Below, piece by piece: positions 39,507 through 42,101 of a stretch of 44,710 nt of DNA. Origin of the DNA: Escherichia phage vB-Eco-KMB36. The DNA lies in sequence record OR525703.1. One strand, written 5' to 3'. Numbering within the stretch: the stretch's first letter is position 1; each line of letters begins with the position of its first letter. Below the pieces are notes generated by a model that saw only the letters and a program-made list of their open reading frames with translations, made no database searches and was not told where the DNA came from. The position numbers were made by a program, and so were the translations under genes.

Positions 39507-39714
39507 TCAAATGACCAGCATCTTATTTATCTGGGTATTGTCCGCAGGCCAGATGCAACTAGCGGCATCAGAAACGTTTTATTCGATGGAGGCGTGCCAG
39601 TCAGCGGCACGCGCCGCAGAGAACGCGCACTTTCTGTTTCAGGGTGACAAGCCCAACGACTCAGAGGTACGCGCTATCTGCTCACCTAAGCGACTTGGTA
39701 AACAGGAGAAGTGA
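39496..39714 (+). CDS. hypothetical protein with N-terminal hydrophobic segment
   Basis: 72-aa ORF; possible signal peptide MTSILFIWVLSAGQMQLAAS. Confidence 0.4.
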   Translation: MRGDQMTSILFIWVLSAGQMQLAASETFYSMEACQSAARAAENAHFLFQGDKPNDSEVRAICSPKRLGKQEK

Positions 39715-39911
39715 TTATGGTACAAAGATATGAGGTAGAAAAATGGGGCTTGCCAGAACCTGAGGTGGTTGAGTACGCATACGGTGGTTATGTAAGCTAC
39801 GAAGACTACGCGAAACTAGAAGCCGAGTTACAGAAATACAAAGACCAGTTTCCGGATTACGTCGAGTGCGCGAACTGCGGGTCAATTACACATGTGGAAG
39901 GGGTGGAGTGA
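39711..39911 (+). CDS. hypothetical protein
   Basis: 66-aa ORF with CANCGS motif. Confidence 0.45.
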   Translation: MIMVQRYEVEKWGLPEPEVVEYAYGGYVSYEDYAKLEAELQKYKDQFPDYVECANCGSITHVEGVE

Positions 39912-40216: not shown

Positions 40217-40510
40217 ATGAGCCTCGCAACTGATATCCTGAAACGAAGCGGCCTTGCGCCGCTGTCACCGAGAGCTAAAACACAGATATACAAGCGTCGC
40301 CGTAACGCGCTGTACCCGGAGATTCAGGCCAGACGTAAAGCTGTCCGCGCCTGCGGGTTCCAGAACGGGAAGGCCTTGAACCTCGGTGAGTTTAAAACGC
40401 AGGAACGTGCGGCTATAGCTAATCGGCTATTTAATTACTGGAAATCGCTGGGATACGATGATATTCCGACGAAACCACAGAGACGACAATACATCTGGAG
40501 ACATAAATGA
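40217..40510 (+). CDS. hypothetical basic protein
   Basis: 97-aa ORF. Confidence 0.45.
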   Translation: MSLATDILKRSGLAPLSPRAKTQIYKRRRNALYPEIQARRKAVRACGFQNGKALNLGEFKTQERAAIANRLFNYWKSLGYDDIPTKPQRRQYIWRHK

Positions 40511-40947
40511 CTACTATCGCGTTTGATGGAAAGACAATGGCCTGTGATACCCGTGTTGTGTGCGGGAGTAACTGTTACAACACAGACACTAAGATTTATG
40601 AGAATGATTTTGTGGTTGTCGGGGTGGCTGGTGACGCGGGGGTTGGAATCCTTTTAGTGAAGGACAATAGTATTTTAGTGCCTAAGCACTACGACTTCGA
40701 TTTCGAAGCCCTGGTGTTCGTGAAAGACACAGAAAAGGTGTACAAAGTCGCGTTTTATAAATCATGGGATTGCGCACTAAGTTCGGTTATTCCGGTTGTT
40801 GATAGCTTTGCCGCTGTTGGCTCCGGCGCGCCTTATGCCCTAGCGGCTATGGAATGTGAGTATTCGGCACATGGTGGCGTAGCCGTCGCTTCAAAGTTCG
40901 ATACCAACACAGGCGGCAAGATTATTACCAAACAACTATTAAGATAA
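40507..40947 (+). CDS. HslV/proteasome beta-like Ntn-hydrolase
   Basis: MTTIAFDG N-terminus, VVVGVAGDAG and AAVGSGAPYALAAM align with HslV TTIVSV, VIAGFAGG and AIGSGGPYAQAA. Confidence 0.6.
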   Translation: MTTIAFDGKTMACDTRVVCGSNCYNTDTKIYENDFVVVGVAGDAGVGILLVKDNSILVPKHYDFDFEALVFVKDTEKVYKVAFYKSWDCALSSVIPVVDSFAAVGSGAPYALAAMECEYSAHGGVAVASKFDTNTGGKIITKQLLR

Positions 40948-41006
40948 TTCCTACCCGTGGTATCCTCCAGTTACTGCATACTTAATACGCACCTGGAGGA
41001 TTCATC

Positions 41007-41258
41007 TTGGATAAATTTACTGAAACAGTGACGGGGTGGCTTCTCGCTGCCGCGCTAGCCGGAGGGGTTATCGGACTACGGCAACATAAGTCTGTTATTT
41101 CTGGCCCCATCGACGGCTTCTGCTTTATCGCAACTGGCTTCACCTGCGCCGTATTCGGCGCACCTCTAGCGGCTCAATGGTTCGGCATTACCGGGGAGCG
41201 TGAAATCGCTCGGCGCACCTCTAGCGGCTCAATGGTTCGGCATTACCGGGGAGCGTGA
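41007..41258 (+). CDS. holin-like membrane protein, truncated by a 55-bp tandem duplication
   Basis: Two hydrophobic helices then frameshifted tail RRTSSGSMVRHYRGA; removing one repeat copy restores a 102-aa three-helix protein ending at 41370. Confidence 0.5.
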   Translation: MDKFTETVTGWLLAAALAGGVIGLRQHKSVISGPIDGFCFIATGFTCAVFGAPLAAQWFGITGEREIARRTSSGSMVRHYRGA

Positions 41259-41265
41259 AATCGCT
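41156..41265. repeat. perfect 55-bp tandem duplication
   Basis: CGGCGCACCTCTAGCGGCTCAATGGTTCGGCATTACCGGGGAGCGTGAAATCGCT occurs twice back to back. Confidence 0.85.
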
Positions 41266-41362
41266 GGTCTGGGTTTCATCATCGCTATTCTCTGGATGCC
41301 TATCTATTCTCGCCTTTCTGGCATCGTCGCCGGAGAATACATCACACGTCGAGGAGGCCCGG

Positions 41363-41635
41363 ATGAATGAGCTATTCTGGCTCGGCGGTATGCTGGCAAT
41401 CGGAGGCACATCGCTGTTTAATGTGTATCATCCCGGCGTTGACGACGGATTATTTGGCCGTGTGCTCTATATCCTGACTGCTATCGTCTGCGCCGCCGGG
41501 TGTATCCACCTGTTACAGGGCAGCATGTCGCCAACGCTGCCCGAGACGTTAATCACATTAGTTGCGCTGCGCCAGATTCGTCAGGCGTGGCTGTCGTATG
41601 GAGGACATAAGCGTGTCTCGAAACATTTCAGATAA
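41363..41635 (+). CDS. holin/antiholin-like two-helix membrane protein
   Basis: MNELFWLGGMLAIGGTSLF and ILTAIVCAAGCIHLL hydrophobic helices; upstream of endolysin. Confidence 0.5.
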   Translation: MNELFWLGGMLAIGGTSLFNVYHPGVDDGLFGRVLYILTAIVCAAGCIHLLQGSMSPTLPETLITLVALRQIRQAWLSYGGHKRVSKHFR

Positions 41636-42101
41636 TGGACTGCATTTCACCGCCGCGTTCGAGGGGTTCCGTGGTACTGCGTATCGTGCTACGCCGAATG
41701 AGAAATACCTGACTATTGGGTACGGAAGCTATGGCCCTCATGTGTATGAAGGACAGAAGATTACGAAGGGGCAAGGCCTCCTGTTACTGAATCGCGATAT
41801 GGCTAAGGCCGTAGCTGCGGTTGATGCCGCCGCGCACCATTCACTGACACAGGCACAGTTCGACGCTGTGTGTGACCTGGTCTATAACGCTGGCGCTGGC
41901 GTGATCGCCGCTACTACTGGCACGGGCAAGGCGCTGCGTTCCGGGGATATTGCGACGCTGCGGGCTAAGCTGGCGATGTTCATCAACCAGAACGGCAAAC
42001 CGCTACTTGGCCTGCGTCGCCGTACTGCGGGCCGTCTGGCGCTGTTCGACGGTAAACCGTGGCAGGAGGCTGAGGCTATTGGGCGCGCGGTGAAAGGTTG
42101 A
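41598..42101 (+). CDS. endolysin (T4 lysozyme-like, GH24)
   Basis: FEGFRGTAYRATPNEKYLTIGYG signature; alternative GTG start 41613 has a GGAGG RBS. Confidence 0.75.
   Translation: MEDISVSRNISDNGLHFTAAFEGFRGTAYRATPNEKYLTIGYGSYGPHVYEGQKITKGQGLLLLNRDMAKAVAAVDAAAHHSLTQAQFDAVCDLVYNAGAGVIAATTGTGKALRSGDIATLRAKLAMFINQNGKPLLGLRRRTAGRLALFDGKPWQEAEAIGRAVKG

Follow-up and report, generated by a model that had tools for sequence, protein, structure and literature searches.

A proteasome-like Ntn hydrolase of the PPH family encoded next to the lysis genes of a Kagunavirus-type Escherichia phage

The locus and its existing annotation

The window (the whole stretch of DNA analysed, 44,710 nucleotides) is a Kagunavirus-type siphophage genome (Guernseyvirinae), with approximately 88-90% nucleotide identity to the Escherichia phages fEg-Eco19 and vB_VIPECOMC04, and, as expected, terminase, tail, polymerase and helicase genes are present in it. 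The gene under study, referred to here as PPH, encodes a 146-aa proteasome-like Ntn hydrolase, is located at 40507-40947 on the plus strand (stop codon included) and belongs to PHROG 1040 ('peptidase HslV family'). The translation of this ORF starts with MTTIAFDG and holds VVVGVAGDAG and AAVGSGAPYALAAM, exactly as the initial annotation had described it. Position 40507 is the earliest available start codon of the frame, no in-frame start being found further upstream, and a GGAG Shine-Dalgarno is located at 40497-40500. The stop codon of the preceding gene and this ATG overlap (ATGA); the preceding gene is also on the plus strand (40217-40510), encodes a 97-aa protein of unknown function (phrog_9632) and is kept in PPH-less relatives. 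Given this overlap and this first possible start, the PPH protein can only begin with Met-Thr, without a propeptide. PPH is translationally coupled to this upstream gene and not to the holin.

PPH is the last in a series of small genes of unknown function, among which anti-restriction or host-takeover functions may be present. The PPH gene itself is under strong purifying selection, with dN/dS values of 0.08-0.16 when compared with three Kagunavirus orthologues. A promoter and terminator scan gave nothing exceeding the shuffled expectation, and the RNA-seq paper on the Kagunavirus K1B4 makes no gene-level statement on the PPH gene. Further upstream, a 66-aa ORF (39711-39911) corresponds to phrog_29624 and shows a weak match to a Lar-like restriction alleviation protein (phrog_3592, E=8e-4), as well as a sub-threshold match to Imm70.

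Orthologues of the PPH ORF are found in 298 phage records, with an identity of 76-91% in Kagunavirus and about 62% in Salmonella Jerseyvirus. Several of the existing records label them as 'peptidase HslV family', 'HslV family peptidase', 'protease' or 'ATP-dependent protease', and the record of phage Shashou (2019) contains the note 'HHPred ... 100 probability to Haemophilus influenzae HslV'. Since these labels were already in GenBank and the protein matches PHROG 1040, the recognition of this gene as HslV/proteasome-like is correct but already known, also from Fuchs et al. 2021. The gene belongs, as a routine member, to a phage family that is known and named and has been annotated before, and for this window the result is only the re-identification of an annotated accessory gene.

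In a Pfam search over the window ORFs of at least 100 aa, the head module gave only a portal-like DUF4055, Phage_Mu_F and terminase, and no canonical prohead protease was detected in this module. The tailspike region carries a Peptidase_S74 intramolecular chaperone domain, and three HNH_3 endonuclease ORFs are present in the window.

Lysis cassette, presence/absence and genomic context

Downstream of PPH, three lysis genes follow on the plus strand: a class I holin gene (41007-41370; phrog_2359, by profile match) interrupted by a 55-bp tandem duplication, a second holin gene (41363-41635; phrog_2508) and an endolysin gene (41598-42101; Phage_lysozyme, PF00959), the start of which is placed according to the 504-nt orthologue of Shashou. 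The order PPH-holin-holin-endolysin is conserved in Kagunavirus and Jerseyvirus. The 59-nt spacer between PPH and the first holin contains a conserved RNA hairpin, ATCCTCCAG...CTGGAGGAT (40962-41001, plus strand; dG -19.6 kcal/mol, z = -3.2), which covers by its pairing the Shine-Dalgarno of the class I holin, a gene with a TTG start, and is not a T-tailed terminator. This hairpin is near-invariant (1-2 substitutions) across the Kagunavirus genomes compared, including a PPH-less one, and the 59-nt spacer is identical in three Kagunavirus genomes that differ by 10-20% elsewhere. The hairpin may restrain the translation of the holin. In the Jerseyvirus spacer (Salmonella phage ZCSE9, 3470-3512 of its locus), a canonical intrinsic terminator, ATCTCCGAA...TTCGGAGAT followed by T7, is present. 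With a terminator in Jerseyvirus and a Shine-Dalgarno-masking hairpin in Kagunavirus, entry into the lysis cassette is apparently controlled differently in the two groups.

The duplication within the class I holin gene is perfect (41155-41209 and 41210-41264) and, since 55 is not a multiple of 3, the gene is frameshifted, the ORF at 41007-41258 corresponding to positions 4-70 of the holin profile and the ORF at 41200-41370 to positions 53-97. Neither vB_VIPECOMC04 nor Shashou has the duplication, which is either a real mutation disrupting this holin, with the second holin remaining, or an assembly artefact.

Among the 116 Kagunavirus-type records matching the segment from the upstream gene through PPH to the holin, PPH is present in 32. 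At least 39 of the 60 matches listed consist of two pieces over about 440-510 bp, PPH being missing and the holin cassette intact. The PPH-less phages comprise the type phages K1G, K1H and K1ind1-3, as well as Golestan and the BASEL isolates Bas71, Bas74, Bas75 and Bas76, and PPH is present in Bas73. In vB_EcoS_fPoEco01 (1880-1970 of its locus), a clean excision has left the last ~18 nt of the ORF behind the upstream gene, the spacer hairpin and the holin being unchanged despite the absence of PPH. PPH is a dispensable accessory gene in Kagunavirus-type phages. A function as prohead protease, considered because Pfam detected no canonical head protease in the window, was rejected, since most of the genus is without PPH and the gene is far from the head module.

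PPH relatives occur across many phage groups, and their neighbourhoods were compared on 78 viral-contig loci representing 33 PPH lineages, using crude ORF calling and BLASTP clustering; the related-locus search used a 24-sequence sub-alignment. In this clustering, no neighbour family was present in more than 6 lineages. The most frequent families were portal, terminase, endolysin and Rz, each in no more than 6-8 lineages. When one representative per lineage was considered, the terminase large subunit was found downstream in ~8/33 lineages and an endolysin in ~3/33, within four genes, while an Rz spanin was located upstream in about 2/33. The N4 gp49/Sf6 gp66 family (PF13876) was upstream in only about 4 loci. 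Some PPH loci lie inside a head-tail connector module and, in DSL-LC04, QkW1, IME346 and a Vibrio phage, the homologue is located among hypothetical genes. Over the 78 loci and 33 lineages, the neighbourhoods thus indicated no conserved partner or substrate. This low recurrence points to insertion at module junctions, as expected for a mobile accessory gene, and not to a functional partner.

In the Ruegeria phage RpAliso (3513-4516 of its locus), the gene for a 171-aa proteasome-like homologue (28.7% identity) immediately follows polynucleotide kinase and RNA ligase genes and is itself followed by NAD-salvage genes, a neighbourhood suggestive of a connection with tRNA repair or counter-defence.

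These data bear on the possibility, raised in the initial annotation, that PPH is tied to the lysis cassette. As a lysis-timing factor, PPH would process or degrade the holin, the antiholin or the endolysin, and such a role could be suggested by the gene order shared by Kagunavirus and Jerseyvirus, by the lack of a terminator between PPH and the holin in Kagunavirus and by the position of PPH between lysis and packaging genes in some other lineages. However, the many PPH-less Kagunavirus-type genomes keep the hairpin, both holins and the lysis genes untouched, Jerseyvirus has an intrinsic terminator in the PPH-holin spacer, and the translational coupling of PPH is to the gene on its other side. 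Outside these genera, lysis genes are not regular neighbours, as illustrated by the low counts of endolysin and Rz and by the lysis-unrelated context in RpAliso, DSL-LC04, QkW1 and IME346. A lysis role was rejected on these grounds, and we regard lysis timing as very unlikely. The link to lysis is positional only, PPH being neither part of the holin-endolysin cassette nor required for it.

Predicted fold and active site

The match of the protein to PHROG 1040 (E=3.8e-34, 119.5 bits) covers residues 1-143. A profile search over 1.84 billion representatives retrieved 3,689 clusters (50% identity) at E<=1e-3 and 192 at E<=1e-10, the best relatives being mostly 135-155 aa long and aligned from residue 1. 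The score against the Pfam Proteasome model PF00227 (19.9 bits, E=6e-4) is under the gathering score of 22.4, and two close orthologues carry a precomputed PF00227 match. The family is a divergent member of the proteasome-like Ntn hydrolase superfamily (PF00227, MEROPS T1), recognised by profile-profile and fold comparison.

The single-chain AlphaFold2 model, obtained with 127 sequences in the alignment, has a pLDDT of 91.5 and a pTM of 0.87 and forms an alpha-beta-beta-alpha Ntn sandwich that can be superimposed on proteasome beta subunits. In a Foldseek search against the PDB, only proteasome or HslV chains were retrieved at E<=0.001, with the best TM score (0.73) for S. aureus HslV; connectase and Anbu appeared lower in the list. 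The predicted structure is accordingly an Ntn fold and not a non-Ntn one, and the description of the protein in the initial annotation as a compact Ntn hydrolase of proteasome-beta/HslV fold, with a Thr right after the initiator Met, holds well, the catalytic set being complete and conserved. The only helices assigned by DSSP are 44-52, 108-116 (H3) and 121-131 (H4), a terminal strand (139-143) follows H4, and the C-terminal S12/H5 elements are absent from the model. The loop at residues 53-65 (40663-40701, plus strand), which includes HYDFDFE, replaces helix H2 and the basic pore cluster of HslV according to DSSP and hhalign, and has a reduced pLDDT (71-82). The PDB contains no solved structure of PPH type, and the literature searched yielded no experimental work (activity, assembly or substrate) on any PPH.

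The conservation of the catalytic residues was surveyed on 137 representatives with pairwise identity of at most 50%, the counts being given per 138 family sequences; all codons cited are on the plus strand. The predicted N-terminal nucleophile, Thr2 (codon 40510-40512), is Thr in 134/138 sequences and Ser in 2 more, and an 'MT' start is found in 129 of the 137 representatives. Methionine aminopeptidase cleaves Met before Thr, as for E. coli HslV. Asp14 (40546-40548), the equivalent of proteasome/HslV Asp17 in the HslV alignment, is Asp in 136 and Glu in 2 of the 138 sequences; Lys29 (40591-40593), equivalent to Lys33, is present in 138/138 and is invariant in the sub-alignments too. Gly42 (40630-40632) corresponds to the oxyanion-hole Gly47 (HslV Gly45) and is kept in 136/138. 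The Gly128-Ser129-Gly130 motif of the proteasome is represented by Gly105-Ser106-Gly107 (40819-40827), in which both Gly are found in 138/138 sequences and the central position is Ser in 124 and Thr in 9. Finally, Asp132 (40900-40902), the equivalent of proteasome Asp166, is conserved in 134/138.

On this basis, a catalytic scheme can be proposed. Translation would start at the ATG at 40507, and the host methionine aminopeptidase would take off Met1. The exposed Thr could then provide both the nucleophile and, by its free amine, the general base partner. Asp14 and Lys29 would tune this Thr, Gly42 would form the oxyanion hole and Gly-Ser-Gly with Asp132 would act as scaffold, as in proteasome beta subunits and HslV.

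A protein of this fold could also be catalytically inert, for example an inhibitor capping or poisoning the host HslV/HslU, or a structural protein. Some proteasome-family members, such as the alpha subunits, are indeed inactive, and the Betaproteobacteria proteasome homologue (BPH), whose active site is complete, was nevertheless inert in standard peptidase assays, which indicates that conserved residues do not guarantee easily detected proteolysis. Against such a decoy or scaffold, the catalytic positions, including the Thr after Met, are conserved near-absolutely in very divergent members, which is hard to explain without catalysis, and the low dN/dS of the gene points in the same direction. 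We therefore consider an inert protein highly improbable.

In another possibility, PPH would be active but not degradative, as a sequence-specific transpeptidase or ligase resembling connectase, or as an amidase acting on one defined target, possibly as a monomer. Connectase, an archaeal protein ligase, shares with PPH the proteasome fold with Thr1 and the loss of flanking helices, and it acts with no unfoldase; this other family member is a ligase and not a protease. We hold a non-degradative enzyme of this type to be unlikely.

Comparison with HslV and proposed function

Fuchs, Alva and Lupas (2021) described PPH as proteins of ~140 aa from Caudovirales, placed in group I close to BPH and HslV, treated as a family distinct from HslV, and unique together with RPC in being without H2. 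The protein analysed here agrees with this description in its size (146 vs ~140 aa), its origin from a tailed phage (the family being one of tailed phages or prophages of Proteobacteria), the absence of a propeptide, the proteasome-beta core with Thr1/Asp17/Lys33 and the oxyanion Gly, the loss of H2 with H1, H3 and H4 kept, the lack of S12/H5 and its position in group I near BPH/HslV; we found no substantive difference. By this description and the match to PHROG 1040, the gene can be assigned to the phage family PPH, whose cluster in the CLANS analysis of these authors has WP_042125023.1 as representative. A feature of the Guernseyvirinae clade is an insertion of ~8 residues (81-87 and 91), giving a longer beta-hairpin than in most PPH members.

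An assignment of the protein to HslV itself is not sustained by the comparison, and PPH is not an HslV orthologue. The NCBIfam HslV models are far from being reached (TIGR03692, 15.5 bits vs a cutoff of 157.75; NF003964, 14.4 bits vs a cutoff of 137), and PPH is about equally distant from HslV, BPH and beta5. The alignment by hhalign, made with an E. coli HslV sequence entered by hand (the relationship being independently seen with deposited HslV chains), has a probability of 97.6%, with gaps facing HslV residues 50-95. About 20 residues are missing across H1-H2, where PPH has one short helix (44-52) in place of the apical pair H1/H2 of HslV, and the H3-H4 connection is shorter by 9 residues. 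As a whole, PPH is about 30 residues shorter than HslV (ClpQ). The Arg86/Arg89/Lys90 region of HslV faces the acidic/aromatic stretch HYDFDFE. In HslV, this basic pore cluster changes upon HslU binding and its mutation cripples the enzyme; PPH has neither the cluster nor H2. In addition, HslV, a dodecameric double ring activated by HslU, is paired with HslU in the hslVU operon, whereas PPH has no adjacent hslU and is phage-borne and dispensable. What the E. coli HslV and PPH share is the Met-Thr-Thr start without a propeptide.

The real homology to HslV and this common start are in agreement with a phage HslV that depends on HslU, as the initial annotation had considered, forming hexameric rings on the host HslU and either diverting the unfoldase to substrates chosen by the phage or titrating HslU away from the host HslV. 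The hairpin that builds the groove for the HslU C-tail (HslV mature residues 19-31, inter-protomer) is also kept in PPH. To our knowledge, all known hosts of these phages encode HslU. In contrast, the HslU-responsive elements, H2 and the Arg86/Arg89/Lys90 cluster, are absent, the scores of PPH fall far short of the HslV equivalog cutoffs, and PPH is no closer to HslV than to BPH and beta5. A comparable offshoot of HslV, BPH, fails to associate with HslU, and Fuchs et al. keep PPH separate from HslV. Pairing with the host HslU is the less likely option given the structural losses, and we judge an HslU-dependent enzyme to be unlikely. Independence from HslU is better supported by the loss of H2 and of the HslU-responsive pore cluster, by the lack of any special closeness to HslV and by the precedent of BPH. 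The latter differs from PPH in being longer (about 185-200 aa), in keeping H1 and H2 and a long acidic pore loop, in forming tetradecamers and in being chromosomal, encoded in stress-linked operons.

An unfoldase was also searched for in the genomic context. No AAA+ unfoldase gene was found next to PPH in the 78 loci from 33 lineages, and no HslU/ClpX-like gene in the window, the sole AAA match there being the AAA_25 of the replicative helicase-primase. We favour, with moderate confidence, the interpretation that PPH is a minimal, propeptide-free Ntn hydrolase of proteasome-beta fold, acting as an HslU-independent threonine peptidase and carried as a dispensable accessory. Such an enzyme would work without ATP or unfoldase, and would be self-assembled or possibly not ring-forming. 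Its targets could be peptides, or an accessible or unstructured segment of a specific host or phage protein. With lower certainty, PPH could confer a conditional advantage, for example in host takeover or counter-defence, which would explain both the purifying selection where the gene is present and its frequent loss.

A broader proposal is that PPH is a self-sufficient viral 'mini-proteasome', either an H2-less ring or a non-ring Thr1 enzyme, thus a new quaternary form, that would need no unfoldase and that many unrelated phages would employ as a mobile means of host takeover or counter-defence, cleaving a specific host protein. We put this forward as a tentative idea, more doubtful than the threonine peptidase itself. 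PPH had no match to a defence system in PADLOC. The BASEL authors reported that their Kagunavirus isolates, which include the PPH-positive Bas73 and the PPH-negative Bas71 and Bas74-76, 'behave very similarly' against the defence systems tested. This presence/absence polymorphism would make the phenotype directly testable.

Among the proteasome-family lineages, PPH alone is primarily viral, and it occurs widely in siphophages, jumbo phages and prophages. The family is a reasonable experimental target, for which the Kagunavirus polymorphism offers a genetic handle. Once found, the target of PPH would explain why phages have a threonine peptidase of their own, and would also show whether a proteasome-fold enzyme works without H2 and unfoldase.

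Longer forms of the domain exist as well. In the Vibrio phage 1.193.O (3001-3801 of its locus) and in BFVD matches of 260-280 aa, a PPH-like domain is followed by a C-terminal extension of ~120 aa, these extended proteins having a total length of 266-279 aa and being annotated as 'nucleophile aminohydrolase'.
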